The translations under genes were made by a program, and so were the position numbers. Below the pieces are notes generated by a model. It saw only the letters and a list, made by a program, of their open reading frames with translations, was not told the DNA's origin and searched no databases. This document shows positions 3,267 through 61,486 of a DNA stretch of 64,000 nt, piece after piece. Numbering within the stretch: position 1 is the first letter of the stretch; each line of letters begins with the position of its first letter. The stretch covers positions 87,050,001 through 87,114,000 of the forward strand of contig CM059432.1 of assembly GCA_030390025.1 (NCBI GenBank), in the 5' to 3' direction. The stretch comes from Squalus acanthias (taxonomy: Eukaryota).

Positions 3267-4712
3267 GCTGCTGGTAGATTTCTCAGTTGAGGAAGCGCTC
3301 AGTCAATGTGGGGAGAGGGTTTTCCCAGGAGGCCACACTGGAGATGGATCTCAGCTTCGCCACTTCCAAAATCAGTGGACCTGCAAAAAGTTTGCCAAGA
3401 CCTGAAAAAACAAAGTTCTCCCACCTACAAGTGATCCTTGTTGAAGCTCCGTTTTTATGCTGGAGCTGCTGCTGTCAGGAAGCCAGCCACTTGTGAACCT
3501 GCCACAATTAGCTGGCATGGTTTGGTAGCAACGTGGAACACGCTGAAAATGTGGTAAAATGTAAAAGGTCAGGCAAAATAGGATTAAACAGGGAGTTAAC
3601 AACCAGTTAACTGCCTTAAGGGCCTATCCCACCGTTTGGTGGCGGGACCGACCGGGAATCTGCGAGCCCGACTTTGGAAAAGTTGGACGGAGGTGGGTTG
3701 ACGGCGGGATTGGAACCCGCTGGCATTTTTTTCAAATTTACCGCCTGACCCGCCTCCAACCCCGCCCCCTGAGCGCCGGCAAAATCGAGCCCTATATTTC
3801 TGACATTATCTTGTAATACACACCCTGCCTGCATAACTCCTATATGCCACGGAGTGACTCACACCTTCCATCCTGCGGATGTGGTTGTGCAGCATGATGC
3901 CATTGCACACAACACTCCTGTGCAATTCCAAATAACTGAAATCTTCCAGTGACTGTTAGGGAAATTTCCATCTTCTGTGGGATCATCAGAATTCCTTTTG
4001 TGTGTTCTGTTGCCAAGACAGATACAGACAGGAATCTATTTACTTTATGGCATAACACAGTCGAGTTTGTGAGATATTTCTATGAGGTCAACACAATTGT
4101 ACTGCATGCAAATGATATGTTCTTTCCACTAGTAGTGCCAGCATTTGCTTCCTGCAACTAAGAAGGGTATCGGGGGAATATCAATATGCCATTTCAGGCA
4201 CCATCACAGTTATTTTATTTTAAATGAAGGGCAGAGTTGGCACATTGGCTTTTGACTTCTTGCCAAACATCGCATCACTTGGAATCATAAATTTAAAACA
4301 AGTTATTCCTTCCCATCACCCTTCACACTGTTTTAAATAGATTTCCTGGTTACTGCTGTGTTCGGTTGATCTCGGGAGCAGATTTCTGCCCTCTGCAGCA
4401 TTCTTGGATTTTTTTTTCAGAAGGATTTTCCTGCAAATGTATGAGTTTGAACATGCCAAGAAAAAGAATGATAATAAAACTGTTTCCATATATTTTGAAC
4501 TTGTTCTTACTTGTGTCCATACATTTTTTTTACCCTAAAATGTTAATATTATATTTAAAACCTACTGGGGGTTCTGCCCTGCAAGTGCAATGGACAAGGC
4601 CGTAAACCCAGTCCCAAATTGCAGAGATGTCATTTCCACAGTCGGGGCAGGGTGTTGGTCCCTACAAGGGCGCTTCAGTGGCATCGGCCTAATCTATCTT
4701 GTTAAGGTGAAC

Positions 4713-5180: not shown

Positions 5181-5529
5181 CACTGTTACCCCTAAGCTGC
5201 GCGGTTCCCTCGAGGCTGCCACGCACCAGGTGTTGCAGGCCACGCAGTCCCACTGGTGCGGGCTCCATCATGCAGGCGCTCTTTTTAATTGTGTCCCACA
5301 GGCTCGTTCTTTAGGCCCGCTGGAGCGGGCTTCGGCACCAGCGCACTGGAATCCGCTACAGGTCTGACCCTGACCCTGAGGTACTGCCTGTCAATGCTGA
5401 TTATCCACACCACCATTCCTGTGGTCTAATGCGCGCGGTATCCCAGCGTGGTCACATTTTCTTCAGCTCCATGGGAGAACTGGATTCGCTAGTGGCTGGG
5501 GGGAGAAGAGAGGATCGAAAGGGGGTGTG

Positions 5530-6123
5530 GGGAGAGAGAGAGTGGGGAGAGAGAAACAGACTGGGAGAGAGAGAGAGAGACGGGGGGAGAGAGAGGCTGG
5601 GAGAGAGAGAGAGAGACGGGGAGAGAGAGAGACTGGAGGGGAGAGAGAGAATGGGGGGGAGAGAGAGAGAATGGGAGAGAGAGAGAGAGACTGGGGGTGA
5701 GAGAGAGAGACTGGGGGGAGAGAGAGAGAATGGGAGAGAGAGAGAGAGAGAGAGAAAGACTGGGGGTGAGAGAGAGAGAGACTGGGGAAGAGAGAGAGAG
5801 AGAGAGAGACTGGGGGAGAGAGACTGGGAGAGAGAGAGACCAGGGGAGAGAGACTGGGGAAGAGAGAGAGAGAGAGACTGGGGGAGAGACCAGGGGAGAG
5901 AGAGAGACTGGGAGAGAGAGGGAGTGAGACTGGGGAAGAGAGAGAGAGAGAGAGAGACTGGGGGAGAGAGAGAGAGACTGGGGAAGAGAGAGAGAGAGAG
6001 AGACCAGGGGGAGAGAGAGACTGGTGGGGGAGTGAGAGACTGGGAGAGTGAGAGAGACTGGGCAAGAGAGAGTGACTGGAGAGAGAGTGAGAGACTGGAG
6101 AGAGAGACTGGAGAGAGCTAGGC

Positions 6124-6158
<35 letters not shown>

Positions 6159-9100: not shown

Positions 9101-12100
9101 ACTGGAGAGAGAGAGAGACTGGAGAGAGAGAGTGACTGGAGAGAGTGAAAGAGACTGGAGAGAGAGAAAGTCTGGAGAGAGAGATAGAGAGACTGGAGAG
9201 AGAGAGAGACTGGAGAGAGAGAGAGAGACTGGAGAGAGAGAGAGAGAGACTGGAGAGAGAGAGAGAGACTGGAGAGAGAGAGAGACTGGAGAGAGAGAGA
9301 GACGGGGAGAGAGAGAGACTGGAGAGAGAGAGAGACTGGAGAGAGAGAGAGAGAGAGAGACTGGAGAGAGTGAGAGAGAGAGAGACTGGCGAGAGAGAGA
9401 GAGAGACTGGAGAGAGAGAGAGACTGGAGAGAGAGAGACAGCAGAGAGAGAAAGACTGGAGAAGGAGAGAGAGAGACTGGAGAGAGAGAGAGAGACTGGA
9501 GAGAGAGAGAGAGACTGGGGAAGAGAGAGAGACTGGAGAGAGCAGGAGAGAGACTGGAGAGAGAGAGAGAGACTGGAGAGAGAGAGAGAGACTGGAGAGA
9601 GAGAGAGAGAGACTGGAGAGAGAGAGACCGAGACTGGAGAGAGAGAGAGAGACTTTGAGAGATAGAGAGGCTGGGGGAGAGAGATAGACTGGAGAGAGAG
9701 AGAGACTGGAGAGAGAGAGTGACTGGAGAGAGAGAGAACGAGACTGGAGAGAGAGAACGAGACTGGAGAGAGAGAGAGAGACTGGAGAGAGAGAGAGACT
9801 GGAGAGTAAGAGAGACTGGAGAGAGAGAGAGAGACTGGAGAGAGAGAGCGAGACTGGAGAGAGAGAGAGAGAGACTGGAGAGTGAGAGAGACTGGAGAGA
9901 TAGAGAGAGACTGGAGAGAGAGAGAGACTGGAGAGAGAGAGAGAGACTGGAGAGATAGAGAGAGACTGGAGAGAGAGAGAGACTGGAGAGTGAGAGAGAG
10001 ACTGGGGAGAGAGAGAGACTGGAGAGAGAGAGTGAGACTGGGGAGAGAGAGACTGGAGAGAGAGAGAGAGACACTGGAGAGAGAGAGAGAGAGACTGGAG
10101 AGAGAGAGAGACTGGAGAGAGAGAGAGAGAGAGACTGGAGAGAGATGGAGAGAGACTGGGGAGAGAGAGAGACTGGAGAGAGAGAGAGAGACTGGGGAGA
10201 GAGAGAGACTGGAGAGATAGAGAGACTGGAGAGAGAGAGAGAGACTGGAGAGAGAGAGAGAGAGAGACTGGAGAGAGAGAGAGAGACTGGAGAGAGAGAG
10301 AAAGAGAGAGAGAGAGACGGGAGAGAGAGAGACTGGAGAGAGTGACTGTAGAGAGAGAGAGAGACTGCGGAGAGAGAGAGACTGGAGAGAGTGAGAGACT
10401 GGGGAGAGAGAGAGAGACTGGAGAGAGGAAAGAGAGAGAGAGAGACGGGGGAGAGAGAGACTGGAGAGAGAGAGAGAGACTGGGAGAGAGAGAAAGACTG
10501 GAGAGAGAGAGAGACTGGAGAGAGAGAGAGAGAGACTGGGGAGAGAGAGAAAGACTGGAGAGAGAGAGACTGGAGAGAGAGACGGGAGAGAGAGAGAGAG
10601 AGAGAGAGACTGGAGAGAGAGAGAGAGAGAGACTGGAGAGAGAGAGACTGGAGAGAGAGAGAGACTGAGAGAGAGAGAGACTGGAGAGTGAGAGAGAGAG
10701 ACTGGGGAGAGAGAGACTGGAGAGAGAGAGAGACTGGAGAGAGAGAGAGACTGGAGAGAGAGAGACTGGAGAGAGAGAGAGAGACTGGAGAGAGAGAGAG
10801 AGACTGGAGAGAGAGAGAGAGAGATACTGGAGAGAGAGAGAGACTGGAGAGAGAGAGCGAGACTGGAGAGAGAGAGAGAGACTGGAGAGAGATGGAGAGA
10901 GACTGGGGAGAGAGAGAGACTGGAGAGAGAGAGAGAGACTGGGGAGAGAGAGAGACTGGAGAGATAGAGAGACTGGAGAGAGAGAGAGAGAGAGAGAGAC
11001 TGGAGAGAGAGAGAGAGAGAGACTGGAGAGTGAGAGAGAGACTGGAGAGAGAGAGAAAGAGAGAGAGAGAGAGACTGGAGAGAGAGAGACTGGAGAGAGT
11101 GACTGGAGAGAGAGAGACTGCGGAGAGAGAGAGACTGGAGAGAGAGAGAGACTGGGGAGAGAGAGAGAGACTGGAGAGAGGAAAGAGAGAGAGAGAGACT
11201 GGGGGAGAGAGAGACTGGAGAGAGAGACAGAGACTGGGAGAGAGAGAAAGAGAGACTGGAGAGAGAGAGAGACTGGAGAGAGAGAGAGAGAGACTGGAGA
11301 GAGAGAGAGAGACTGGAGAGAGAGAGAGAGAGACTGGGGAGAGAGAGAAAGACTGGAGAGAGAGAGACTGGAGAGAGAGAGAGACTGGAGAGAGAGAGTG
11401 ACTGGAGAGAGTGAAAGAGACTGGAGAGAGAGAAAGTCTGGAGAGAGAGATAGAGAGACTGGAGAGAGAGAGAGACTGGAGAGAGAGAGAGAGACTGGAG
11501 AGAGAGAGAGAGAGACTGGAGAGAGAGAGAGAGACTGGAGAGAGAGAGAGACTGGAGAGAGAGAGAGACGGGGAGAGAGAGAGACTGGAGAGAGAGAGAG
11601 ACTGGAGAGAGAGAGAGAGAGAGAGACTGGAGAGAGTGAGAGAGAGAGAGACTGGCGAGAGAGAGAGAGAGACTGGAGAGAGAGAGAGACTGGAGAGAGA
11701 GAGACAGCAGAGAGAGAAAGACTGGAGAAGGAGAGAGAGAGACTGGAGAGAGAGAGAGAGACTGGAGAGAGAGAGAGAGACTGGGGAAGAGAGAGAGAGA
11801 CTGGAGAGAGCAGGAGAGAGACTGGAGAGAGAGAGAGAGACTGGAGAGAGAGAGAGAGACTGGAGAGAGAGAGAGAGAGACTGGAGAGAGAGAGAACGAG
11901 ACTGGAGAGAGAGAGAGAGACTTTGAGAGATAGAGAGGCTGGGGGAGAGAGATAGACTGGAGAGAGAGAGAGACTGGAGAGAGAGAGTGACTGGAGAGAG
12001 AGAGAACGAGACTGGAGAGAGAGAACGAGACTGGAGAGAGAGAGAGAGACTGGAGAGAGAGAGAGACTGGAGAGTAAGAGAGACTGGAGAGAGAGAGAGA

Positions 12101-12423
12101 GACTGGAGAGAGAGAGCGAGACTGGAGAGAGAGAGAGAGAGACTGGAGAGTGAGAGAGAGACTGGAGAGATAGAGAGAGACTGGAGAGAGAGAGAGACTG
12201 GAGAGAGAGAGAGAGACTGGAGAGATAGAGAGAGACTGGAGAGAGAGAGAGACTGGAGAGAGAGAGAGACTGGAGAGAGAGAGCAAGACTGGAGAGAGAG
12301 AGAGAGACTGGAGAGAGAGAGAGAGACTGGAGAGAGAGAGAGAGACTGGAGAGAGAGAGAGAGAGAGAGACTGGAGAGAGAGAGAGACTGGAGAGAGAGA
12401 GACTGGAGAGAGTGAGAGAGACT

Positions 12424-12456
<33 letters not shown>

Positions 12457-15400
12457 CTGGAGAGAGAGAGACTGGAGAGAGAGAGAGAGACTGGAGAGAG
12501 AGAGAGAGACTGGAGAGAGAGAGAGAGACTGGAGAGAGAGAGCGAGACTGGAGAGAGAGAGAGACTGGAGAGAGAGAGTGAGAGACTGGAGAGAGAGAGA
12601 GAGACTGGAGAGAGAGAGAGAGAGACTGGAGAGAGAGAGGGAGAGACTGCGGAGAGAGAGAGAGACTGGAGAGAGAGAGACTGGAGAGAGAGAGACTGGA
12701 GAGAGAGACTGGAGAGAGAGAGAGAGCTGGAGAGAGAGAAAGAGACTGGAGAGAGAGAAAGGCTGGAGAGAGAGAGAGAGAGACTGGAGAGAGAGAGAGA
12801 GACTGGAGAGAGAGACTGGAGAGAGTGACTGGAGAGAGAGAGAGAGACTGCGGAGAGAGAGAGACTGGAGAGAGAGAGACTGGAGAGAGAGAGTGAGACT
12901 GGAGAGAGAGAGAGAGACTGGAGAGAGAGAGAGAGATACTGGAGAGAGAGAGAGAGACTGGAGAGAGAGAGTGAGACTGGAGAGAGAGAGGGAGAGACTG
13001 GGGAGAGAGAGAGAGACTGGAGAGAGAGAGAGAGACTGGAGAGAGAGAGACTGGGGAGAGAGAGAGAGACTGGAGAGAGGAAAGAGAGAGAGAGAGAGAC
13101 TGGAGAGAGAGAGAGACTGGAGAGAGAGAAAGACTGGAGAGAGAGAGACTGGAGAGAGAGAGACTGCAGAGAGAGAGAGAGAGAGACTGGAGAGAGAGAG
13201 AGAGACTGGAGAGAGAGAGAGAGACTGGAGAGAGAGAGAGAGACTGGAGAGAGATGGAGAGAGACTGGGGTGAGAGAGACTGGAGAGAGAGAGAGAGACT
13301 GGGGAGAGAGAGAGACTGGAGAGATAGAAAGACTGGAGAGAGAGAGAGAGAGAGACTGGAGAGAGAGAGAGAGAGACTGGAGAGAGAGAGAGAAAGAGAG
13401 AGAGAGCGAGAGACTGGAGAGAGTGACTGGAGAGAGAGAGAGAGACTGCGGAGAGAGAGGGACTGGAGAGAGAGAGAGACTGGGGAGAGAGAGAAAGACT
13501 GGAGAGAGGAAAGAGAGAGAGAGAGAGAGACTGGGGAGAGAGAGAGATTGGAGAGACAGAGAGAGACTGGGAGAGAGAGAAAGACTGGAGAGAGAGAGAC
13601 TGGAGAGAGAGAGACTGGAGAGAGAGAGAGACTGGGGAGAGAGAGAAAGACTGGAGAGAGAGAGACTGGAGAGAGAGAGAGAGAGACTGGAGAGAGAGAG
13701 AGAGACTGGAGAGAGTGAAAGAGACTGGAGAGAGAGAAAGTCTGGAGAGAGAGATAGAGAGACTGGAGAGAGAGAGACTGGAGAGAGAGAGAGAGAGACT
13801 GGAGAGAGAGAGAGAGACTGGAGAGAGAGAGAGAGAGAGACTGGAGAGAGAGAGAGAGACTGGGGAGAGAGAGAGACTGGAGAGAGAGAGAGACTGGAGA
13901 GAGAGAGAGAGGACTGGAGAGAGTGAGAGAGACTGGAGAGAGAGAGAGACTGGAGAGAGAGAGAGAGAGAGACTGGAGAGAGAGAGCGAGACTGGAGAGA
14001 GAGAGAGACTGGCGAGAGAGAGACAGACTGGATAGAGAGAGAGACTGGAGAGTGAGAGAGAGACTGGAGAGAGAGAGAGAGACTGGAGAGAGAGAGAGAC
14101 TGGAGAGAGAGAGAGAGACTGGAGAGAGAGAGAGAGACTGGAGAGAGAGAGAGAGACTGGAGAGAGAGAGAGACTGGAGAGAGAGAGAGACTGGAGAGAG
14201 AGAGAGAGACTGGGAGAGAGAGAGAGAGACTGGGAGAGAGAGACTGGAGAGAGAGAGAGACTGGAGAGAGAGAGACTGGAGAGAGAGAGAGACTGGAGAG
14301 AGAGAGAGAGGACTGGAGAGAGAGAGAGAGAGACTGGAGAGAGAGAGAGAGACTGAGAGAGAGAGAGAGAGACTGGAGAGAGAGAGAGACTGGAGAGAGA
14401 GAGTGAGACTGGAGAGAGAGAGGGAGAGTCTGGGTAGAGAGAGAGAGACTGGAGAGAGAGAGACTGGAGAGAGAGACTGGAGAGAGAGAGAGAGCCTGGA
14501 GAGAGAGAAAGAGACTGGATAGAGAGAAAGGCTGGAGAGAGAGAGAGAGAGACTGGAGAGAGAGAGAGAGACTGGAGAGAGAGAGACTGAGAGAGACTGG
14601 AGAGAGAGAGAGACTGGAGAGAGAGAGAGAGACTGGAGAGAGAGAGAGAGAGACTGGAGAGAGAGAGAGAGAGAGACTGGAGAGAGACTGGAGAGAGTGA
14701 GAGAGAGACTGGAGAGAGAGAGAGAGACTGCAGAGAGAGAGAGAGTGTAAAGTGAGAGACTGGGGAGAGAGAGTGACTGGAGAGAGAGAGACTGGAGAGA
14801 GAGAGAGAGACTGGAGAGAGAGAGAGACTGGAGAGAGAGAGAGAGACTGGAGAGAGAGACAGACTGGAGAGAGAGAGAGCGAGAGAGACTGGAGAGAGAG
14901 AGAGAGACTGGAGAGAGTGAGAGAGAGACTGGAGAGAGCGAGAGAGACTGGAGAGAGAGAGAGACTGGAGAGAGAGAGAGAGACTGGAGAGAGAGAAAGA
15001 CTGGAGAGAGAGAGAGACTGGAGAGAGAGAAAGACTGGAGAGAGAGAGAGAGAGACTGGAGAGAGAGAGAGAGACTGGAGAGAGAGAGACGGGGGAGAAA
15101 GAGAGACTGGAGAGAGAGAAAGACTGGAGAGAGAGAGACTGGAGAGAGAGAGAGACTGGAGAGAGTGAAAGACTGGAGAGAGAGAGTGAGACTGGAGAGA
15201 GAGAGAGAGACTGGAGAGAGAGTGAGACTGGAGAGAGAGAAAGACTGGAGAGAGAGAGAGAGACTGGAGAGAGAGAGAGAGACTGGAGAGAGAGAGAGAG
15301 ACTGGAGAGAGAGAGAGAGACTGGAGAGAGAGAGAGAGAGACTGGAGAGAGAGAGAGACTGGAGAGAGAGAAAGACTGGAGAGAGAGAGAGAGACTGGAG

Positions 15401-17775
15401 AGAGAGAGAGAGAGACTGGAGAGAGAGAGAGACTGGAGAGAGAGAAAGACTGGAGAGAGAGAGAAAGACTGGAGAGAGAGAGAGACTGGAGAGAGAGACT
15501 GGAGAGAGAGAGAGAGCCTGGAGAGAGAGAAAGAGACTGGAGAGAGAGAAAGGCTGGAGAGAAAGAGAGAGAGACTGGAGAGAGAGAGAGAGACTGGAGA
15601 GAGAGAGAGACTGGAGAGAGAGAGAGACTGGAGAGAGAGACTGGAGAGAGTGAGAGAGAGAGACTGGAGAGAGAGAGAGAGACTGGAGAGAGAGAGAGTG
15701 TAAAGAGAGAGACTGGGGAGAGAGAGTGACTGGAGAGAGAGAGACTGGAGAGAGAGAGAGAGACTGGAGAGAGAGAGAGACTGGAGAGAGAGAGAGACTG
15801 GAGAGAGAGAGAGAGAGAGAGACTGGAGAGAGAGAGAGAGACTGGAGAGAGAGAAAGACTGGAGAGAGAGAGAGACTGGAGAGAGAGAAAGACTGGAGAG
15901 AGAGAGAGAGAGACTGGAGAGAGAGAGAGAGACTGGAGAGAGAGAGACGGGGGAGAAAGAGAGACTGGAGAGAGAGAAAGACTGGAGAGAGAGAGACTGG
16001 AGAGAGAGAGAGACTGGAGAGAGTGAAAGACTGGAGAGAGAGAGTGAGACTGGAGAGAGAGAGAGAGACTGGAGAGAGAGTGAGACTGGAGAGAGAGAAA
16101 GACTGGAGAGAGAGAGAGAGACTGGAGAGAGAGAGAGAGACTGGAGAGAGAGAGAGAGACTGGAGAGAGAGAGAGAGACTGGAGAGAGAGAGAGAGAGAC
16201 TGGAGAGAGAGAGAGACTGGAGAGAGAGAAAGACTGGAGAGAGAGAGAGACTGGAGAGAGAGACTGGAGAGAGAGAGAGAGCCTGGAGAGAGAGAAAGAG
16301 ACTGGAGAGAGAGAAAGGCTGGAGAGAAAGAGAGAGAGACTGGAGAGAGAGAGAGAGACTGGAGAGAGAGAGAGACTGGAGAGAGAGAGAGACTGGAGAG
16401 AGAGACTGGAGAGAGTGAGAGAGAGAGACTGGAGAGAGAGAGAGAGACTGGAGAGAGAGAGAGAGTGTAAAGAGAGAGACTGGGGAGAGAGAGTGACTGG
16501 AGAGAGAGAGACTGGAGAGAGAGAGAGAGACTGGAGAGAGAGAGAGACTGGAGAGAGAGAGAGACTGGAGAGAGAGAGAGAGAGAGAGACTGGAGAGAGA
16601 GAGAGAGACTGGAGAGAGTGAGAGAGAGAGACTGGAGAGAGCGAGAGAGACTGGAGAATGAGAGAGAGACTGGAGAGAGAGAGAGACTGGAGAGAGAGAA
16701 AGACTGGAGAGAGAGAGAGAGAGACTGGAGAGAGAGAGAGACTGGAGAGAGAGAGACGGGGGAGAAAGAGAGACTGGAGAGAGAGAAAGACTGGAGAGAG
16801 AGAGACTGGAGAGAGAGGGCGACTGGACAGAGAGAGAGAGACTGGAGAGAGAGAGACGGGGGAGAAAGAGAGACTGGAGAGAGAGAAAGACTGGAGAGAG
16901 AGACTGGAGAGAGAGAGAGACTGGAGAGAGAGAGAGACTGGAGAGAGTGAATGACTGGAGAGAGAGAGTGAGACTGGAGAGAGAGAGAGAGGCTGGAGAG
17001 AGAGTAAGACTGGAGAGAGAGAATGACTGGAGAGAGAGAGAGAGACTGGAGAGAGAGAGAGAGACTGGAGAGAGAGAGACTGGAGAGAGAGAGAGAGACT
17101 GGAGAGAGAGAGAGACTGGAGAGAGAGAGAGACTGGAGAGAGAGAGAGAGAGAGAGACTGGAGAGAGAGAGAGAGACTGGAGAGAGTGAGAGAGAGAGAC
17201 TGGAGAGAGCGAGAGAGACTGGAGAGAGAGAGAGACTGGAGAGAGAGAGAGACTGGAGAGAGAGAAAGACTGGAGAGAGAGAGAGAGAGAGACTGGAGAG
17301 AGAGAGAGACTGGAGAGAGAGAGACGGGGGAGAAAGAGAGACTGGAGAGAGAGAAAGACTGGAGAGAGAGAGACTGGAGAGAGAGGGCGACTGGACAGAG
17401 AGAGAGAGACTGGAGAGAGAGAGACGGGGGAGAAAGAGAGACTGGAGAGAGAGAAAGACTGGAGAGAGAGACTGGAGAGAGAGAGAGACTGGAGAGAGAG
17501 AGAGACTGGAGAGAGTGAATGACTGGAGAGAGAGAGTGAGACTGGAGAGAGAGAGAGAGGCTGGAGAGAGAGTAAGACTGGAGAGAGAGAATGACTGGAG
17601 AGAGAGAGAGAGACTGGAGAGAGAGAGAGAGACTGGAGAGAGAGAGAGAGAGACTGGAGAGAGAGAGAGACAGGAGAGAGAGAGAGAGACTGGAGAGAGA
17701 GAGAGAGACTGGAGAGAGAGAGAGACTGGGAGAGTGGAAGAGAGATGGGGGGAGAGAGAGACTGGGGGAGAGAGA
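5530..17775. repeat. Polypurine compound microsatellite/satellite, unit approximately (GA)n-CTG, 12.2 kb
   Basis: Continuous GAGAGAGAGACTG-type units with variable GA number and recurring diagnostic variants. Confidence 0.98.
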
Positions 17776-30829: not shown

Positions 30830-31300
30830 ATACTAGGTTGATTGGAGGAAATTCCTGCTCCTCCAGTACTGGATGTCAGACAAGCAGTCTGACAATTTAG
30901 AGACTGGAGGGGTCAAGAGAAGTGGTGGTGAGATAGAGCTGGGTGTTGTCAGCGTACATGTGGAAACTGACGCTTTGTTTTTGAATGATGTCGCTGAGGG
31001 GCAGCATGTAGATGAGAAATAGGAGGGGGCCAAGGATAGATCCTTGGGGGACACCACAGGTAACGATGCGGGAGCAGGAAGAGAAGCCATTGCAGGTGAT
31101 TCTCTGGCTACGATTAGACAGATAGGAATGGAACCAGGCGAGTGCAGTCCCACCCAGCTGGACGACAGTGGAGAGGCGTTGGAGGAAGCTGGAGTGGTCA
31201 ACCTTGTCAAAGCCTGCAAACAAGTCGAGAAGGACGAGGAGGGATAGTTTACCATTGTCACAGCCACATAGGATGCCATTTGTGACTTTGATAAGAGCTA
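30830..31300 (-). mobile_element. L2 LINE RT fragment
   Basis: ALIKVTN, LLVLLDL..FDKVDH, GVPQGSILGPLLF, YADNTQLY. Confidence 0.9.
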
Positions 31301-31833
31301 GATGAGCTGTGAAGTAAGCCTTTTCCTTTTTAAAGTTGAGTGTATGGTAAGACATTTGCTGGAGTGAGAGTGCTGAAACTTTCTTTTTCAAATATATATA
31401 ATCAAGACATCTATATTTTGAAGTGTAATAACTATGTTATAAGGGAAGCAAATAACAGCTCATTGCAAGCTGCAGTGTGATCTGAGAGGCAGAAAGATAT
31501 AATTGAACAAACACTCATAACCATGTAAGTTCAGGTCATGTGCGAATGCAACTGAATAAAGTGTAAACTATTTGGTGGCTGGAGAGCCCCTTTAGTATCA
31601 CACGCAAATAAATCTGGCGCGTTACCAAGGGAGCCTGTAATTTGAAACGGTGTCTATTCCTAAAAATACATTTTTAAAGAATCTGTTGCAGAGTCTGGCT
31701 ATGTAGTGTCCACGTTCTTCAGAATTCACATGAGGAAATCAAGAAACTGGCTGTTTGAACCAGTAGTAAAGTGCGCAAGTTTTCTAAGTTGGTTTGCAGT
31801 GTGGTGATGCTTTGGCATGCAGTGACGCAGGAT

Positions 31834-38550: not shown

Positions 38551-39119
38551 AAATGGATGGCAAGACAGAAAATCTGGGCCACTGTGTTTGAGATGAGGAG
38601 TGCTGTTCCATCGTCATTTCTCTTTATCCCTCATTATGTCACAATTATTCTGCACCTTCATTAAGATACAACTCCTCAAAACTGGGATTTCACCAAAAAG
38701 ATCAGGTAGCAAAGCTATGTAGTTTTATCTGAAAAATCTTAAACGAGAGCCTTGCCTTCCAAGGAGAGCTGGAATGATTGAGATATATCCAAATGATTAA
38801 TGAGATGTCAGGTTTGAGCAATAGGTGGGAATAAGTTACTTTGTGGATCACAAGCCATTCATAATTATCCTTTGGATAGCAGGTTGGGGAACTTTTATCA
38901 GCTTGTATTAATAATAATTACATTTATGAGGGAGAGAAAATGATCTCATAGAAATAGGAAATAAATACGAATGAGGATGAAACGTAGTTTATAGTGGTAA
39001 TTGGAACGAAATATTAATTTAGAATTGGCAGCTAGTTAGAAGAAGGCAGAAAATCACAGGTAAGCCTTTAAAGGGGTTAAAACTGTTATAGCCTTTACAA
39101 AGGCTGCTGATATTTTTTG

Positions 39120-39339
39120 AAATTGAGAGGTCGCACAACACCAGGTTATAGTCCAACAATTTTATTTTAAATCACAAGCTTTCGGAGTTACAACTCCTTC
39201 GTCAGGTGAAGTGAGGCGAAGGAGTTGTAACTCCGAAAGCTTGTGATTTAAAATAAAATTGTTGGACTATAACCTGGTGTTGTGCGACCTCTCAATTTTG
39301 TCCACCCCAGTCCAACACCGGCATCTCCGCATCATGACC
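39120..39339. mobile_element. Penelope-like element remnant: inverted pseudo-LTR palindrome plus short tail
   Basis: Perfect 82-bp inverted repeat (39120-39201 and 39217-39298) with a 15-bp spacer, a 41-bp tail, a 12-bp flanking direct repeat GATATTTTTTGA (39109-39120 and 39340-39351), and an embedded hammerhead motif. Confidence 0.8.
39172..39209 (-). ncRNA. Minimal type-I hammerhead ribozyme motif
   Basis: The minus strand reads UCAC-CUGACGA-A-GGAG-uuguaa-CUCC-GAAA-GC-UU-GUGA: core boxes CUGANGA and GAAA, stem II GGAG/CUCC, stem I UCAC/GUGA, palindromic AAGCUU stem III. Confidence 0.7.
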
Positions 39340-39648
39340 GATATTTTTTGATGCATGATTCAACCTTTTCAAAGGCTGTTTTGGTAACAAAATTACTTGG
39401 CAAAACCCAATGGCTGGCATAATAAATGTGGTGACAGGAACAGAGTCTGTGGTCACTTGATGGAGCGGCACAACCCTTCACCCCTTTGTTTGATGGCTGG
39501 TGAAGTGGAGGCAGTGCAGAGTAAGGTTAGAATGAGGAGAATGACCCGGTTTGCCATTCTAGGACATCCTCCCAATAGAACAGCATTGGAGTGAGACAAA
39601 AGAAAAGGATGAAGCAGCAGCTGACCATTACTAGCACTGGGACTGGTA

Positions 39649-41890
39649 GGCCGCGATTTCCCCTACCTGGGCGGGTCCATGGCGGGTGACATCGGTGGTG
39701 GGTCACGGCTCCGCTGCTGGCTCCATACCGGCCTCCAACATTACTTTCCCTAATTAGGCTTGTTAAGCCCTCCCAGTGCATTTCCCAGCCAATTGAAGGA
39801 CGTGGGTCTGATGACGTCATTTGATGAAGCGTCATCAGCCAGTTTCCTTAAAGGGACCATGGCCAAATTTACTTTGACATTTGTGCTGTCAGTGTTCTAC
39901 AGAATTGAGGTGCTACAAACACTGACAATGACTGCACAAAGGTGCACGGCTGCACCCAGGCTCTCCCCTGACTCCCTCCATATGCTTATGGAGGGAGTCA
40001 CAGCATGCAGGGAGGTTCTCTTCCCTTCCAATGGGTGGAAGAGACCTCCCCAGGAGCCCAATGCAGCTTGGTTGCACATTGCACAGGAGGGCACAAGCAG
40101 GGATGTCGTCAGGAGGACCTGGGTGCAGTGGCGCAAACCTTTCAATGATCTCAGTAGTTCATGAAACATTAATGCAAAGCCACACTCAACCTCATGCTGC
40201 TGTGCCGCTCATCACATCCCCATCACTCTGTCTTCCTTACCCTACACCTGCACATCTTTACTCACACCAACTTACCTTGAACCTCCACTCATCCCTCTCT
40301 ATCTACATTATCACTTCCCCAGCTCACTAGCCACCCTCACACTCACCCTCATCCTAGTCCAATCATACCAACTAACAAGACACAAGGGTAGGCACTTGTG
40401 TGTTTTAGCCAATGTTCATGTGAAGTTTCTGTTAATGTGCTGTCAAACATTGAAATCTTTATTTTCAGCACTTTGCGTTCTTGGACAGATTTGTGTGCAC
40501 CTTTGGAAGTGGCTTAGTGAGTTGCAGTGAATGGTGAGACATAACGGTACCCCCCGCAATGCTGATGTATGTGAAAGGAATGGCTTGGGCATTGTAGGGA
40601 TGCTTTATGTTGTTGGTGTGGGGTGGTGCCAACCTGGCGCATCATGTGACAGCCAGGGTGTACAGCGTCAAGTGAAGTAAATCTGGCCATGGTGAGGCCA
40701 TCCCTGGCGTCCTGGGCAGCAATGTGGTCGGGTGCTGATGCCCTCTGTCCTGTGCAGCATCAGGTGAGTGCAGAGAAGGTTGGTGGTGTTGTTGGTGCTG
40801 CTGGTGTGCCTGGTGATGCTGGTGTTGCGGCTGATCGTGGTTAGATTCTGAGGACCAAGGTGAGAGAGTATAAACCGTACCCATGCTGATGGAATAGATG
40901 GCAGGTGAACTTGAGATGGCAGAAGCGATCTGTCAATGGTGAGAGAGGTTGTTCCAATGAGGTGACACTGGACAGAGAGTTTGCTCCAAACACTTGTAAA
41001 CACTGCATAAAGCTCAATCTGTCTTCCAAATGCAGCAAGCAACAACTTCTGAGCTTGGAAAGTGAACAGCTGTGAGATGGGAGATTTTAAGAACATAAGA
41101 ACATAAGAAATAGGAGCAGGAGTAGGCCATTTGGCCCTTCGAGCCTGCTCCACCATTCAATAAGATCATGGCTGATCTTCTACCTCATCTCCACTTTCCT
41201 GCACTATCCCCATATCCCTTGATTCCCTTAATATTCAAAAATCTATCGCTCTCTGTCTTGAATATACTCAACGACCCTCCACAGCCCTCTGGGGTAGAGA
41301 ATTCCAAAGATTCACCACCCTCTGAGTGAAGAAATTTCTCCTCATCTCAGTCCTAAATGGCCGACCCCTTATTCTGAGACTGTGACCTCTGGTTCTAGAC
41401 TCTCCAGCCAGGGGAAACATCCTCCCTGCATCTACCCTGTCAATCCCTGTAAGAATTTTGTATGTTTCAATGAGATCATCTCTCATTCTTCTAAACTCGA
41501 GAGAATATAGGCCTAGTCTACTCAATCTCTCTTCATAGGACATTTATAGCACATTTAAAGCTGTCAAGTAATGAGATGATTCCATGGCCATTCAACTCCC
41601 ACCCAGCTTAACAGATGTGATCCCCGAGCAGAGTGGACACCGTTGGCGAGCTGGTAAATTCTAAAGTTGAGCTCAAAATTGTTGTTAATCCTCTGTTAAC
41701 AAGGTCATAATGACCTGAATTGCCTCCCCCACCGCTGCGTGTCGAGTCTGCTCAGCGCTGACCGACCCGACATTTGGTAAAGGCGCGTAGCGGCGGTTTG
41801 ACAGTGTGGTCCCGAGCCGCTGTCAAATAAAAACACTTTCCCACCCGACCCGCCACCGATCCCACCCGCTGTCCCCCGGAAAATTCCCCC
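39649..41890. mobile_element. Non-autonomous Harbinger deletion derivative, copy A
   Basis: Ends GGCCGCGATTTCC ... GGAAAATTCCCCC with GTA on both flanks. Retains Myb exon 1 (MTAQRCTAAPRLSPDSLHML...RTWVQWRKPFNDL) and fused transposase N- and C-termini (40642-40884, -). Confidence 0.9.
41090..41542 (-). mobile_element. CR1 LINE 3' fragment nested in Harbinger copy A
   Basis: MSYEERLSRLGLYSLEFRRMR...RNFFTQRVVNLWNSLP, (TTCTTATG)n tail, TTTA duplicated at both junctions. Absent from copy B. Confidence 0.92.
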
Positions 41891-43084
41891 GTAGTGTCAG
41901 CCCTATGGTGCACGTTAGGTGCAGGAATCGCTGCCACAAATGCTACAGGCATCAGATGCTACAGATGTCTACTGACCTGGAGTTTATGTAGCCAATTCCA
42001 CAAAGTCATTGCCAGTTCGGTGCACCTTTGCCGATAAATATGGGTGGGAGAGTACCTGTAGCTAGGTGCAGGTTCACCTGTCTGCCATTCTTCCTTTTCT
42101 TCCTCCAAAAACATAAGTAATGGGAGAATTCCAATTGGGAAAATGATTGCTCCATACTGTGAACATTCAACAAAATGGCCGTAGCAGAAAACTTGACACA
42201 AATTCTGCTGGTCAACTATGTGGAAACCAAAAAGTAAGAAAAAAACGTTAAGAAATAGCTTCAAAATTCTGCTACAAATCTTGCTATAGAAATCTTTAAA
42301 TGCACTTCCATAAACAGCACACTCAGCAAACCGGGATCTCTATCTCATATAGGCAGGTAGATGACTGAGCACTACACAGGTATGAACACCAGATGATGCC
42401 ATCAGGGCCTAATTTTAATTTAATTAACTGCAAACTGGCAGTGATTCTGGCTTCTTTACAAAATATTACCGGAAAATTGGATTGGATGCTAAATGGGCAG
42501 AAATCTGGCATAATAGATTTCCACCCATTTTTCCAATCCATGATATCCACTTTACATCCATTAATTAGGTATAATTCAATGATAAATCTTCCTTGGTATG
42601 AATATGGATGTGGAAAATATGTTGATGAGGACTAAGTACAACACAGTTACGCTGACTGCCTGGCATAACTTGAGTGGACTGGGTGGAGAATTGCTCTGGT
42701 AACTGCCCTGCCCATTCCCTGCTCTCTTCCGTCATCTCTGAAAAAGACAGGTGACATAGAATATATCCACCCAGATATGGGTGGCAATATTCGAAGGGCA
42801 TGAAAATGATGCGGAATACATTGCCTGACGCATTCCCCATCATTAGTGCCTTAGCAACGTTGGGCACTAGGAACGGGTGTGTGTTGCTGGCTTCCAGCCT
42901 TGCTATTGTGTCCTGAGGGCCATTTAAATTTTCAAGGGCCCGCAGGGAGCTGAACTGGTAGGAAGTGATCAGTTCAACTTCCCAGGTCTGGGAAAAGAAT
43001 TCGCAATGTCATGTTTAGCTACACCGCAGGCTGCCTACCCCGATACGTTGAAGCAGGTGCCTGAGGCCTGTACAGTGATTTTTC

Positions 43085-44755
43085 TGATGAAAGGGAGGAA
43101 CTGAAAGAAATCAGTATTTGCAGGGAAATGGTGTTAGGGAAATTGATGGGATTGAAGGCCGATAAATCTCCAGGGCCTGATAATCTACATCTTAGGGTAC
43201 TTAAGGAAGTGGCCCTAGAAATAATAGATGCATTGCTGATCATCTTCCAACATTCGATGGAATCTGGAACTGTACCCATGGATTGGAGGGTAGCTAATGT
43301 TACCCCACTATTCAAAAAGGGTGGTAGAGAGAAAGCGGGGAATTACAGACCGGTAAGTCTGATGTCGATAGTGGGGAAAATGCTAGAGTCCATTATAAAG
43401 GATGTAATAGCTGAGCACTTGAAAAACAGTGACAGGATCGGACAAAGTCAACATGGATTTACAAAAGGTAAATCGTGCTTGACTAATCTACTGGAATTTT
43501 TTGAGGATGTAACTGGGAAAATAGATAAGGGAGAACCAGTAGATGTGGTATATTTGGACTTTCAAAAGGCTTTCGATAAGGTCCCGCATAAGAGATTAGC
43601 GTGTAAAGTTAAGGCACATGGGATTGGGGGCAAGGTATTGACTTGGATAGAGAACTGATTGGCGGACAGAAAGCAGAGAGTAGGAATAAATGGGTCTTTT
43701 TCCAAGTGGCAAGCAGTGACTAGTGGGGTACCGCAGGGATCGGTCCTTGGACCCCAGCTATTCACAATATACATTAATGATCTAGATAAGGGAACTAAAT
43801 GTAATATCTCCAAGTTTGCAGATGACACAAAGCTGGGTGGGAGTGTGTGCTGCGAGGAGGATACCGAGAAACTCCAGGATGATTTGGACAGGTTGGGTGA
43901 GTGGGCAGAAGCGTGGCAGATGCAATATAACGTGGATAAATGCAAGGTTATCCACTTTGGTGTCAAAAACAGAAAGGCAGACTATTATCTGAATGGCAAT
44001 AGATTGGGAGAAGGGCAAGTGCAACGAGACCTGGGTGTCCTTGTGCACCAGTCGCTGAAGGTAAGCATGCAGGTGCAGCAGGCGGTGAAGAAGGTAAATG
44101 GTATGTTGGCCTTCATAGCAAAAGGGTTTGAGTATAGGAACAGGGATGTCCTGCTGCAGTTGTACAGGGCCTTGGTTAGACCACACCTTGAGTACTGTGT
44201 GCAGTTTTGGTCGCCTTATTTGAGGAAGGATGTTCTTGCCATGGAAGGAGTTCAGCGAAGATTCACAAGGCTGATACCTGGGATGGCAGGAATGACATAT
44301 GAGGAGAGATTGGGTCGATTGGGCTTATACTCGTTGGAGTATAGAAGAATGAGAGGGGATCTCATCGAAACATATAAAATTGACAGGTCTGGACAAACTA
44401 GATGCAGGAAGAATGTTCCCGATGGTCGGAGAGTCCAGAACCAGGGGTCATAATCTAAGGATAAGGGGTAAGCCATTTAGGACAGAAATGAGGAAGAATT
44501 TCTTCACCCAGAGAGTGGTGAACCTGTGGAATTCTCTACCATAGAAGGTAGTTGAGGCCAAGTCATTAAATATATTCAAGAATGAGTTAGATATATTTCT
44601 TAAAGCTAAAGGTATCAAGGGATATGGGGAGAAGGCAGGGACAGGGTACTGAGTTTGGATGATCAGCCATGATCTCATCGAATGGCGGAGCAGGCTCGAG
44701 GGGCCGAATGGCCTACTCCTTCTCCTATCTTCTATGCTTCTATGTTTCTATGTTT
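43085..44755 (+). mobile_element. CR1 LINE, 5'-truncated, full RT domain plus 3' UTR
   Basis: KSPGPD, NYRPVSL, YLDFQKAFDKVPH, GVPQGSVLGP, FADDTK. One TGA at 43656-43658 and a frameshift near 44380. TTCTATG-type repeat tail. Confidence 0.95.
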
Positions 44756-45577: not shown

Positions 45578-46773
45578 ATGGGTGCTATTTATACTGTCTC
45601 ACCTTGGTCCTCGGAATCGGACCACGATGAGCCTCAACACCAGCAGCACCAATAACAACACCACCAACCTTCTCCTCAAACACCTGAAGCTGCACAGGAC
45701 AGAGGGCATCAGTGCAGGCCTGCACTGTGCTGGAGGTGATACCCCCAACACAGGGTATACAGGCAGAGGATGAGCTTCCTCAACATGACGGAGCAGCAGT
45801 GCTTCAGGAGGCTCAGGCTATCGCGCCAGGTTGTCGCAGACATTTGCACATTGCTGGAGGAAGACCTGCAGCCCAGAGGAGCGGGTGGACACGCCTTACC
45901 AGTTGCTGTCAAAGTCACCAGCGCCCTCAATTTCTTCGTCTCAGGCGTCTTCCAGGGATCTGCAGCAGACATTTGCGGCATCTTGCAGTTGGCCGCCCAC
46001 AGATGCATCACCCAGGAAACCGATGCACTCTTTGACAAGTACACCAATTATATCAACTTTGCCACTGATAAAACCAGTGTTACTGAGCGGGCACGCGGCT
46101 TTGCGGCTCTGGCTGGCTTCCCACAGGTGCAGGGCGTCATCGACTGCACACGTGTGGCCATCAGGGCACTCCATCATTACCCAGGAGTCTTTGTCAACCA
46201 CAAAGACTTCCACTCCCTCAATGTGCAGCTCGTCTGCAACCATAGGAAGATCATCATGCATGTGTGCGCAAAGTTCCCTGGCAGCTGCCGTGACTCTTTC
46301 GTCTTGCGCCAATCCACCCTCCCTCACTCCTCTTCACTCCTCCAAACAGACTTTCTAGCTGGCTTCTTGGAGACAAGGGCTATCCACTGAAGACGTGGCT
46401 CATGACCTCCTTGAGGAGGCCAAGTACTGAGGCCCAGGAGCGATATAATGAAAGCCACATTTCCACCAGATGTGTCATAGAGCAGACAATTGGCATGCTG
46501 AAAATGCGCTTCAGATGCCTTGACAGATCTGGAGGAGCCCTTCAGTACGCACCAGCCAGGGTCTCCAGAATCGTCGTGGTCTGCTGCACCCTGCACAACA
46601 TAGCGCAGCAGCGAGGATTACCGCTGCATGAGGAGCAAGGCTCTGAGCACTCAGCCTCTTCAGAGGAGGAGGAGCATCAGCTGGAAGATGAGGAGGAGGA
46701 ACAGGAGGAACCTGCGGTCCAGATCCCACCAGCACCTGAGCACATTGCTGCCCGGGAGGCCAGATTTACTTAA
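45578..46773 (+). pseudogene. Harbinger DDE transposase pseudogene
   Basis: [23 protein letters not shown] (shifted frame), [13 protein letters not shown]. Two early stops and a frameshift near 46330. Confidence 0.92.
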
Positions 46774-56861: not shown

Positions 56862-59800
56862 GGCCGGAATTTTCCAGGGGGTCAGTGGGTGGGATCGGTG
56901 GCAGGTTGGGACCCCGCTGTCAACCCGCCGCCACGCGCCTTTCCCAATGTCAGGTCTGTCAGCGTTGAGCAGACCCGCCACGCAGTGGCGGGGGACCCAA
57001 TTAAGCTGATTATTGCCTTGTTGACAGATCATTAATAATACGTTTAACCTTACCTTTTCTCTTCAACTGCTTGCCCATGGGGTCCATGTTGCTAGGGGAT
57101 CAAGTCTATTAAGCTGAGGTGGAAGTTGAATTGCCATTGAATGAGCTGATTTCTTGACAGTTTGAAATGTGCTATAAAAGCTCCCACCTCACAGCTGTTC
57201 ACTTTCCAAGCTCAGAAGCTGTTGCTTACACCATTTGGAACACAGATTGAGCTTTATGCAGGCTGCAAGTGTTTGGAGCAAACTCTCTATTGGAACAACC
57301 TCTCTCAGCATTGACAGCTTGCTTCTGTCATCTCAACTTCACCTGCCATCTATTCCATCAGCATGGGTACCATTTATACTGTTTCATCTTGGTCCTCAGA
57401 ATCCCACCACGATCAGCCCCAGCTCCAGCAGAACCAGGCACACCAGCAGCACCAACAACACCAACCTTCTCCACAATCACCTGATGCTGCACAGGACACA
57501 GGGCATCAGCAGTGACCACATTGTTGCCCGGGAGGCCAGGGATGGCCTCACCATGGCCAGATTTACTTCACTTGATGCTGTACACCCTGGCTGCCACATG
57601 ATATGCCAGGTTGGCACCACCCCACACGAACACCATAAAGCATCCCTACAATGTCCAAGCCATTCCTTTCACACTCATCACCATTGCGGGGGTAACGTTA
57701 TGTCTCACCATTCACTGGAACTTACTGAGCCACTTCCAAAGGTGCACACAAATCTGTCCGAGAATGGAAAGTGTTGAAAATAAAGGTTTCAATGTTTGAC
57801 AGCACATTAACAGAAACTTTACATGAACATTGGATAAAACACCCAAGTGCCTACCCTTGTGTGTTGTTAGTTGGTATGATTGCACTAGGATGAGGGTGAG
57901 TGTGAGGGGTGGCTAGTGAAATGGGGATGTGATAATGTAGATAGAGAGAGAGAGAGAGAGGGATGAGTGGAGGTGCAAGGTATGTTGGTGTGAGTAAGGA
58001 TGTGCAGAAGTAGGGTTGGGAAGGCAGAGTGATGGGGATGTGATGAGTGGCACAGCAGGATGAGGTTGAGTGTGGCTTTGTACTAATGTTTTGTGATCTA
58101 TTGAGATCATTGAAAGGTTTGCGTCACTGCACCCAGGTCCTCCTGACCACATTCCTGCTTGTGCCCTCCTCTGCAATGTGCAACCAGGCTGCGTTGATCT
58201 CCAGTGGAGGTCTCTTCCACCCATCAGAAGAGAAGAGGGCCTCCCTGTGTGCTCTGACTCCCTGCCCTCTGAAATGGCCTAGCAAGCCACTCAGTTGTAA
58301 CAAACCGCTATGAAACACAATAATAAGAATAAAACCGGACGGACCACCCGGCATCGACCTCGGCACCAGCTACGGACACGACAACAGCACACCCAGCCCA
58401 GTCGACCCTGCAAAGTCCTCCTCACCAACATCTGGGGACTTGTACCAAAACTGGGAGAGCTGTCCCACAGACTAGTCAAGCAACAGCCTGACATAGTCAG
58501 TACTCACAGAATCATACCTTTCAGCCAATGTCCCAAACTCCACCATCACCATCCCTGGGTATGTCCTGTCCCACCGGCAGGACAGACCCACCAGGAGTGG
58601 GGCACAGTGGTATACAGTCGGGAAGGAGTGGCCCTGGGAGTCCTCAACATTGACTCCAGACCCCATGAAGTCTCATGGCTTCAGGTCAAGCATGGGCAAG
58701 GAAACCTCCTGCTGATTACCACCTACCGCCCTCCCTCAGCTGTTGAACACCACTTGGAAGAAGCACTGAGAGTAGCAAGGGCACAGAATGTACTCTGGGT
58801 GGGGGACTTCAATGTCCATCACCAAGAGTGGCTCGGTAGCACCACTACTGACCGAGCTGGCCGAGTCCTGAAGGACATAGCTGCCAGTCTAGGCTTGCGA
58901 TAGGTGGTGAGAGAACCAACACGAGGGAAAAACCTACTTGACCTCGTCCTCACCAATCTGCCTGTCGCAGATGCATCTGTCCATGACAGCATTGGTAGCA
59001 GTGACCACCGTACAGTCATTGCAGAGACGAAGTCCCATCTTCACACTGAGGACACCCTCCATTGTGTTGTGTGGCACTACCACCGTGCTAAATGGGATAG
59101 ATTCAGAACAGATCTAGCAGCTCAAAACTGGGCATCCATGAGGCGCTGTGGGCCATCAGCAGCAGCAGAATTGTATTCCACCACAATCAGTAACCTCATG
59201 GCCCGGCATATCCCTCACTCTACCATTACCATCAAGCCAGGTGACCAACCCTGGTTCATTAAGAAGTGTAGAAGAGCATGCCAGGAGCAGCACCAGGTGT
59301 ACCTAAAAATGAGGTGCCAACCTGGGGATGCTGCAACACAGGATTACATGCATGCTAAAAAGCAGAAGCAGCATGCTATAGACAGGGCTAAGCATTCCCA
59401 CAATCAAGGGATCAGATCAAAGCTCTGCAGTCCTGCCACATCCAGTCGTGAATGGTGGTGGACTATTAAACAACTAACGGGAGGAGGAGGCTCCATGAAT
59501 ATCCCCATCCTCAATGATGGTCGAGCCCAGCACGTGAGTGCAAAAGACAAGGCTGAAGCATTTGCAACCATCTTCAGCCAGAAGTGCCGAGTGGATGATC
59601 CATATCGGCCTCCTCCTGAGGTCCCCACCATCACAGAAGCCAGTCTTCAGCCAATTCGATTCACTCCACGTGCTATCAAGAAACGGTTGAGCGTAAAGGC
59701 TATGGGCCCCGACAACATCCCGGCTGTCGTGCTGAAGACCTGTGCTCCAGATCTAGTCGCACCTCTAGCCAAGTTGTTCCAGTACAGCTACAACACTGGC

Positions 59801-61486
59801 ATCTATCCGACAATGTGGAAAACTGCCCAGGTATGTCCTGTCCACAAAAAGCAGGACAAATCCAACCCGGCCAATTACTGCCCCATCAGTCTACTCTCAA
59901 TCATCGGCAAAGTGATGGAAGGTGTCATCGACAGTGCTATCAAGCGGCACTTACTCACTAATAACCTGCTCACTGATGCCCAGTTTGGGTTCCGCCAGGA
60001 CCACTCAGCTCCAGACAGCCTTGGTCCAAACATGGACAAAGGAGCTGAATTCCAGAGGTGAGGTGAGAGTGACTACCCTTGACATCAAGGCAGCATTTGA
60101 CCGAGTGTGGCATCAAGGAGCCCTAGTAAAACTGAAGTCAATGGGAATCAGGGGAAAAACTCTCCACTGGCTGCAGTCATACCAAGCACAAAGGAAGATG
60201 GTTGTGGTGGTTGGTGGTCAATCATCACAGCTCCAGGACATCACTGCAGGAGTTCCTCAGGGCAGTGTCCTAGGCCCAACCATCTCCAGCTGCTTCATCA
60301 ATGACCTTCCCTCCATCATAAGGTCAGAAATGAGGATGTTCGCTGATGACTGCACAGTGTTCAGTGCCATTCGCAACTCTTCAGATAATGAAGCAGTCCA
60401 TGCCCGCATGCAACAAGACCCGGACGACATTCAGGCTTGGGCTGATAAGTGGCAGGTAACATTCGCGCCACACAATTGCCAGGCAATCACTATCTCCAAC
60501 AAGCGAGAGTCTAACCACCGTCCCTTGACATTCAACGGCATTGCCATCGCTGAATCCCCCACCATCAACATCCTGGGGGTCACCATTGACCAGAAACTTA
60601 ACTGGACCAGTCACATAAATACTGTGGCAACAAGAGCAGGTCAGAGGCTAGGTATTCTGCGGTGGGTGTCTCACCTCCTGACTCCCCAAAGCCTTTCCAC
60701 CATCTACAAGGCACAAGTAAGGAGTGTGATGGAATACTCTCCGCTTGCCTGGATGAGTGCAGCTCCAACAACACTCAAGAAGCTTGACACCATCCAGGAC
60801 AAAGCAGCCCGCTTGATTGGCACCCCATCCACCACCTTAAACAGTCACTCCCTCCACCACCGGTGCACCGTGGCTGCAGTGTGTACCATCTACAAGATGC
60901 ACTGCAGCTACTCGCCAAGGCTCCTTCGGCAGCACCTCCCAAACCGCGACCTCTACCACCTAGAAGGACAAGGGCAGCAGGCGCATGGGAACACCACCAC
61001 CTCCAAGTTACCCTCCAAGTCACACACCATCCTGACTTGGAAATATATCACCGATCCTTCATCGTCGCTGGGCCAAAATCCTGGAACTCCCTCCCTAACA
61101 TTACTGTGGGAGTACATTCACCACATAGACTGCAGCGGTTCAAGAAGGTGGCTCATCACTACCATCTCAAGGGCAACTAGGGATGGGCAATAAATGCTGA
61201 CCATGCCAGCTACGCCCAGATCCCATAAATGAATTAAAAAAAAAGCACAAATGTCAAGATAAAGTTGGCCATGGTCCCTTTAAGGAAACCGGCTGATGAT
61301 GCGTCATGAAATGACGTCACCAGACCCGTTTCCTCTAATTGGCCCTGGGTAAACGTGCTGGGTGGGCTTAACAAGCCCCTTCAAAGGAAATTCACTTCAC
61401 AGAGCGGGATGGATCCAGCAGCGGGGTCGCAACCCGCCACCGACATCGCCCGCCACGGACCTGCCGAGGTCAGCAAACTCGCAGCC
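56862..61486. mobile_element. Non-autonomous Harbinger deletion derivative, copy B (inverted relative to A), with a nested LINE
   Basis: Ends GGCCGGAATTTTCC ... GCAAACTCGCAGCC. Collinear with the reverse complement of 39649-41890, including the same deletion junctions. Confidence 0.9.
58264..61243 (+). mobile_element. APE/RT non-LTR retrotransposon (CR1/L2/Jockey group, clade unresolved), near-complete ORF2
   Basis: TNIWGL, YRPP, GDFNVHH, LDLVLTN, SDH (endonuclease). GPDNIP, LDIKAAFDRVWH, GVPQGSVLGP, FADD (RT). AATAAA and A-tail. A few stops and frameshifts. Confidence 0.93.

Follow-up and report, generated by a model that had tools for sequence, protein, structure and literature searches.

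What left a hammerhead ribozyme inside a long palindrome at this locus, and how was the palindrome made? In the window, by which we mean the whole 64-kb stretch of DNA analysed here, the segments 39120-39201 and 39217-39298, separated by a 15-nt spacer, match each other exactly as reverse complements over 82 nt; the longest other perfect inverted repeats, with arms less than 600 nt apart and a GA satellite excluded, are 17 and 16 nt. A 12-mer at 39109-39120 is present again at 39340-39351 and, since its left copy shares one base with the first arm, we place the insert at 39121-39339, a length of 219 bp inside 12-bp direct repeats. Our preferred reading, to which we give a probability of roughly 85%, is that an abundant, endonuclease-bearing Penelope-like element (PLE) left this insert, a dead, 5'-truncated insertion, recently and in a single event. 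The features of the locus are as follows.

39109-39120, plus strand: left copy of the target-site duplication (TSD) in an AT-rich target, identical to 39340-39351 and seen in empty-site contigs of public runs X1, X6 and X9.
39121-39216, minus strand (sense): pLTR-end copy of 96 nt, 5'-truncated and without the tail, the spacer 39202-39216 included, from the inverted-repeat comparison.
39172-39209, minus strand: minimal type I hammerhead, from the sequence, a descriptor match and identity at 34 of 40 nt to the metagenome stretches L002 and L003.
39202-39219, no strand: head-to-head junction, at most 2 nt from a 3-bp TGA/TCA self-complementary match that overlaps the ribozyme core.
39217-39298, plus strand (sense): the other pLTR-end copy, cut short within the ribozyme core so that CUGA is missing, from the inverted-repeat comparison.
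39299-39339, plus strand: one-sided 41-nt tail, 68% A+C, with predicted back-pairing onto 39261-39268 and family ends at 39335-39336.
39340-39351, plus strand: right copy of the TSD, 12 bp, from the repeat match and the empty-site contigs.

The first-pass annotation of this DNA had described a perfect palindrome. The arms are indeed exact, but the insert as a whole is asymmetric, with an overlooked 41-nt tail (39299-39339) after the right arm only; measured to the commonest family ends at 39335-39336 rather than to the TSD, the tail is 37-38 nt long. The loss of CUGA from the plus-strand arm, which had also been described, is confirmed, as the plus copy begins at 39217, past these letters. The two 5'-truncated copies stand inverted, head-to-head, and sister junctions occur in the contigs of public runs too. 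No tandem array is present at the locus (there is no TRF row there), and the window holds no second copy of the repeat family.

Long perfect inverted repeats with a TSD and a high copy number are also what a MITE or fold-back DNA transposon would show, with the arms as its terminal inverted repeats, and Harbinger-like DNA transposons are common in the window. The inverted repeats are not terminal, however, for the right arm stops 41 nt before the right TSD copy. Copies of the family have variable centres but a fixed 3' end, and the ribozyme inside the arms is of the PLE type. The one-sided tail largely refutes the MITE reading, which we regard as very improbable.

To place the insertion in time we compared the contigs of four of 21 public runs (X1, X6, X9 and X19) with positions 38600-39900. 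X1, X6 and X9 are DNA-type or unlabelled runs, X6 and X9 coming from two organisms other than that of X1, and X19 is a run guessed to be RNA. In all three DNA-type runs single contigs join 39108 directly to 39340 with no extra letters, and the 12-mer is single at this empty site. The 12-bp repeat is therefore a true target-site duplication, as the description of a duplication on both sides had implied, save that the left copy overlaps the first arm by one base. The empty site in X1, X6 and X9 also shows that the 219-bp insert is young. X1 is the best-matching run, containing 0.72 of the stretch's words, and its flank differs at only four listed letters. Because this flank is near-identical and yet the site is empty, the insert is probably polymorphic within the species, on the assumption that X1 comes from the same species as the window. 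A 15-nt imperfect direct repeat (39092-39106 and 39364-39378) surrounds the insert, and its copies would lie 41 nt apart in the empty site.

Perfect palindromes are a known class of assembly and library artefact, and a fold-back chimera has to be weighed here. Among the contigs listed (there were 47,798 further pieces) none connects a flank with the insert, and the evidence for the filled allele is thus the assembly. Against a chimera, the insert lies precisely where a 12-mer found once in the empty allele occurs twice in the assembly, its asymmetric tail stops at the natural end of the family, and no flank sequence lies inside it. We consider an artefact most unlikely.

The same contigs show that the insert sequence comes from a very high-copy family. 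Over the insert their summed depth reaches about 1e5 to 3e6, compared with about 16-40 on single-copy flank contigs, although depth does not equal copy number. Among the loose ends listed, family copies end at 39335-39336 in 67 and 61 contigs of X1, 177 of X9, and 12 and 13 of X19; contigs exit there into unrelated sequence, which places the 3' end of the family at these positions. No family-end cluster was present at the inner, tail-less site among the loose ends listed (1,518 more exist). The loose-end consensus behind 39187 matches the spacer in X9 (37 contigs, agreement 0.58) and X19 (9 contigs, agreement 0.82). The spacer is thus family sequence from upstream of the ribozyme and part of the left, tail-less copy. 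In X19 family sequence is present and the unique flanks beside the insert are uncovered, making the run uninformative on expression of the locus. The run comparison reported no position at which molecules start or stop in large numbers, and contigs are unable to reveal a cleavage end. One X1 contig joins 39337 to 39864, which is probably another insertion of the family, into a neighbouring high-copy repeat.

All three organisms (X1, X6 and X9) commonly have head-to-head forms, and the centres of these vary. Of the 15 joints listed (123 more exist), 13 run from an antisense arm to a sense arm at centres other than that of the insert. The commonest centre among them is the stem II palindrome, with four contigs in X1, one in X6 and ten in X9; these stem II-centred joints could be library fold-back artefacts. 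We take the 39187-to-39231 joints to be either sister palindromes or fold-back artefacts, not variants of the stem II loop. At 39215-39217, too, contigs of X1, X6 and X9 cross with one to three letters missing, and we interpret these as sister junctions formed almost at this point. The differing centres of the head-to-head joints suggest that the mirror half is rebuilt at each insertion. Some sister centres reach a depth of tens of single-copy equivalents (for example 669 in X9). A39159 is common to both arms as a minority variant, about 97% of X1 depth reading G at this position; minority variants common to both arms point to one template or one source locus.

On the minus strand the ribozyme begins with a 4-bp stem I (39209-39206 paired with 39175-39172), followed by the core CUGACGA at 39205-39199, a 5-bp stem II capped by a 4-nt loop, then GAAA, the palindromic AGCU that replaces stem III, and U17. 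The cut predicted from the sequence lies between 39176 and 39175. The first-pass description of a complete minus-strand hammerhead stands as regards the intact minimal fold; it had omitted an extra unpaired A, 39198, between A9 and G10.1. A minimal-hammerhead descriptor, composed after the motif had been seen, matched once in the 64-kb window (39209-39172) and not at all in 200 Markov-1 simulations of 51.7 kb each, both strands being searched. Rfam scans gave no match to a hammerhead family. MIR5380 of Rfam was rejected as a generic long-hairpin match, at 43 bits against a gathering score of 150 bits.

We also compared the stems across three distinct sequences of different families that had been picked by their shared pattern. 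All 30 cells were paired, and four of the ten stem pairs were changed on both sides, a value reached by 16 of 500 shuffles. Covariation drawn from three sequences of different families can only be suggestive. Inside the family, the fifth pair of stem II is U-A at the insert and C-G in the loose-end consensuses.

Would this ribozyme work where it now lies? In the computed fold of the minus-strand transcript the closing pair of stem II has a probability of about 4e-17, and stem II is not formed in the computed full hairpin. For dimers, the active-like structure was computed at -18.3 kcal/mol and the best inactive one at -30.0 kcal/mol. The ribozyme is unlikely to work at the insert, because the antisense copy would be transcribed first and because of the very low closing-pair probability. 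It is predicted to be buried in the 82-bp hairpin, and hence to be inactive. A long hairpin RNA from the insert, with a computed energy of about -151 to -153 kcal/mol, is physically possible.

We then looked for the proteins that might have carried such an element. The window contains no PLE ORF: the 67 open frames of at least 105 aa outside the satellite gave Pfam matches to LINE reverse transcriptase (RT) and endonuclease, DDE_Tnp_4 and Myb/SANT only, and tblastn of two PLE-type proteins against the 64-kb window found nothing (best E value 0.40). The window around the insert is occupied by other repeats. Positions 5528-17775 hold a GA-rich satellite of 12 kb, whose consensus period is 17 bp and whose strand skew is extreme. 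Harbinger/PIF-like remains with Pfam DDE_Tnp_4 and Myb/SANT matches lie at 2055-3302 (minus), 39754-40161 (plus) and 45740-46770 (plus), and broken LINE ORFs with RVT_1 and endonuclease matches at 30900-31436 (minus), 43065-44450 (plus) and 58301-61190 (plus). A high-copy repeat starts at about 39650, some 300 nt to the right of the insert.

Outside the window, the core patterns were found in none of the viral contigs and none of the prokaryote genomes, and a family-specific 19-mer matched no stretch among viral and metagenome contigs. A looser core pattern returned seven metagenome stretches, three of which (L002, L003 and L007) passed the descriptor and four of which failed it. L002 and L003 (1-1050 and 1-1470) are overlapping contigs, and their ribozyme is the one identical to that of the insert at 34 of 40 nt. 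In L003 the ribozyme lies downstream of an ORF with a GIY-YIG-like signature. This ORF has no Pfam match; it is 44-47% identical to the C-terminal part of the RT-type proteins P0002 and P0003, and its GIY-YIG-like identity comes from motif inspection and homology to RT-bearing proteins. P0003 carries an RT domain, and L002 holds an RT fragment, inverted. We conclude that L002 and L003 belong to a PLE of another animal. They have only the ribozyme core in common with the insert, the rest of the arm and the tail being different, and so they support the type of ribozyme and not a family link. L003 also contains an inverted piece, 1-109 against 983-1091. The looser pattern further returned nine bacterial genome stretches (L008-L016) with a CUGA-N-GAA, stem II and GAAA core, none of the nine having the AGCU palindrome. 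Some of these may represent ordinary hammerheads of bacteria, in which stem III is longer.

How does the insert compare with known PLEs? In the Pen PLEs of Adineta vaga an inverted pLTR is accompanied by a one-sided tail of 31 bp and by TSDs of 8-10 bp that an empty site confirms (PMC3846280), and Craig et al. 2021 describe the typical PLE as having a one-sided tail of 30-40 bp and inverted, 5'-truncated copies (PMC8557442). The insert resembles these and endonuclease-bearing PLEs in general in its head-to-head truncated copy, its tail at one end, its TSD with an empty site, its AT-rich target and the short palindrome at the inverted junction (PMC3846280, PMC8557442). It differs from the PLEs of these papers in having no ORF between the repeats, both copies being truncated within the last 125 nt to give 219 bp in total. 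Its 12-bp TSD, against 8-10 bp, and its tail of about 38-41 nt, against 30-40 nt, are slightly longer. The accessible parts of PMC8969392 and PMC6155905 agree with the other PLE papers and contain nothing different.

The ribozyme points in the same direction. Cervera and de la Pena characterise the minimal hammerheads (min-HHRs) of PLE pLTRs by a set of traits, and describe pairs on opposite strands 100-700 bp apart, many solo copies from truncated PLEs, and low cleavage even for dimers (PMC4209133); dimer cleavage of hammerheads is summarised in the review PMC6765202. The min-HHR traits are all present in the insert: the type I CUGANGA/GAAA/UH core, the extra base between 9 and 10.1, G10.1-C11.1, a short helix I (4-5 bp in the PLE ribozymes) and a stem III palindromic at 15.2-16.2 (PMC4209133). 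Helix II is 5 bp here, against 7-8 bp in the Schistosoma families (PMC4209133), and unlike the min-HHR pairs in the part of that paper available, the core is kept in only one of the two copies. The identification of a young, protein-free Penelope remnant, made in the first-pass annotation, is accordingly supported by the empty site in three of three runs, the identical arms, the layout of inverted pLTR, tail and TSD, and these ribozyme traits.

The same annotation had offered a short non-autonomous ribozyme element as an alternative, that is, a retrozyme-like or SINE-like retroelement with a palindromic unit or a short hammerhead RNA, mobilised in trans by a PLE protein. In the data examined no ORF lies at the locus and none is linked to the family, some palindrome centres lie well above single-copy depth, and family sequence occurs in X19, the run guessed to be RNA. 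Non-LTR retrozymes have been proposed as non-autonomous PLE derivatives and have turned up in one chondrichthyan, and like the insert they are protein-free, carry a type I hammerhead and are related to pLTRs (available text of 10.64898/2026.07.22.740005). They are, however, tandem repeats with a hammerhead in each unit, the defining form of animal retrozymes, whereas the insert is an inverted pair with tail and TSD and its locus is not tandem. The transcript of a palindromic unit would, as computed, be an 82-bp duplex without a folded ribozyme. The many palindrome centres, which vary widely among copies, the tail-less left copy and the ribozyme locked in a hairpin make such an element improbable. 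It is possible that a short, non-palindromic donor RNA was the source.

If the insert is a truncated PLE, the remaining question is how its mirror half was made. One copy ends at the family 3' end with a tail and the other about 40 nt earlier, and the DNA directly inside each TSD copy, read inward, is antisense to the family RNA. An antisense start after both TSD copies is as expected of two first-strand cDNAs. The RT/GIY-YIG protein of the element probably nicked the two target strands 12 nt apart, and both 3'-OH ends would then have primed reverse transcription, on one side at the tail's outer end and on the other at its inner end. The cDNAs would stop after about 96 and 123 nt and be joined in the middle, at or beside the 3-bp self-complementary match, either because they annealed to each other or because the tail-less one folded back. 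The two copies do meet at most 2 nt from this match at the ribozyme core. The hammerhead itself would be a passenger belonging to the parent pLTR, predicted to be sequestered and unable to cleave at the insert.

A biochemical parallel is offered by PAc, a Poseidon element of Anolis carolinensis, whose protein cleaves AT-rich DNA on both strands and extends both (Frangieh et al. 2024, PMC11167929). In vitro PAc starts at two sites bounding the tail, and ribozyme cleavage is not required (PMC11167929). The insert is PAc-like in having a hammerhead about 80-120 nt upstream of a two-ended tail, an AC-rich tail with a predicted stem, an AT-rich target and the use of both strands. In a weak predicted fold of 39255-39339 (plus strand) the tail folds back on 39261-39268, leaving the inner, tail-less end inside a stem-loop reminiscent of the AC-rich one where PAc starts. 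The PAc ORF begins in stem II, and no long frame begins there at the insert. Two-primer formation of inverted inserts is our inference and is not stated in PMC11167929. A literature search at the level of listings, with subscription papers mostly outside its reach, found no two-primer model of PLE inversion.

The same PLE origin is compatible with another route, in which the palindrome comes from self-priming on an antisense template or from a single cDNA that folded back, followed by endonuclease trimming or a central deletion. Arkhipova et al. explain head-to-head PLE junctions, which are palindromic, by self-priming on an antisense template (PMC3846280), and an 'EN-mediated resolution' of the tail appears in PMC8557442, both as far as the available text goes. 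The junction at a short self-complementary match fits this route, as do the minority variants common to both arms, with their single template or source locus. The simplest version of fold-back fails on the spacer, for one tail-primed cDNA cannot supply the 15 nt that belong to the tail-less copy, and the clean 12-bp TSD with an antisense start at both nicks fits two primings directly. Self-priming or fold-back is a possible origin that we hold to be somewhat doubtful. In the fullest version of the two-primer model, the stumps would be the product of twin-priming by a dimeric RT-endonuclease, with nicks 12 nt apart, one cDNA from each end of the tail and closure through microhomology in the short palindromes of the ribozyme, namely stem II and the TGA/TCA match at the core; we put this forward only tentatively.

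The insert belongs to a known class of which very many dead fragments exist, and its layout has already been published as a signature of PLE insertions. The ribozyme of its family may already be listed in the supplements of PMC4209133 or 10.64898/2026.07.22.740005. As a single locus it matters little; its value lies in being a clean record of an insertion, with the empty allele known and the arms unmutated. The way in which PLEs produce inverted copies, and tails on one side only, is described as unresolved in PMC11167929 and in the available part of PMC8557442, and a genome-wide set of young inserts of this kind could separate the two-primer from the self-priming models. If the insert were transcribed within host RNA it would form an 82-bp duplex, possibly a source of small RNAs or a substrate for ADAR. 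Should twin-priming prove true, the hammerhead would set the closure point of inverted insertions, a structural role without cleavage, and the many polymorphic loci would let counting alone test how inverted pLTRs and tails arise.
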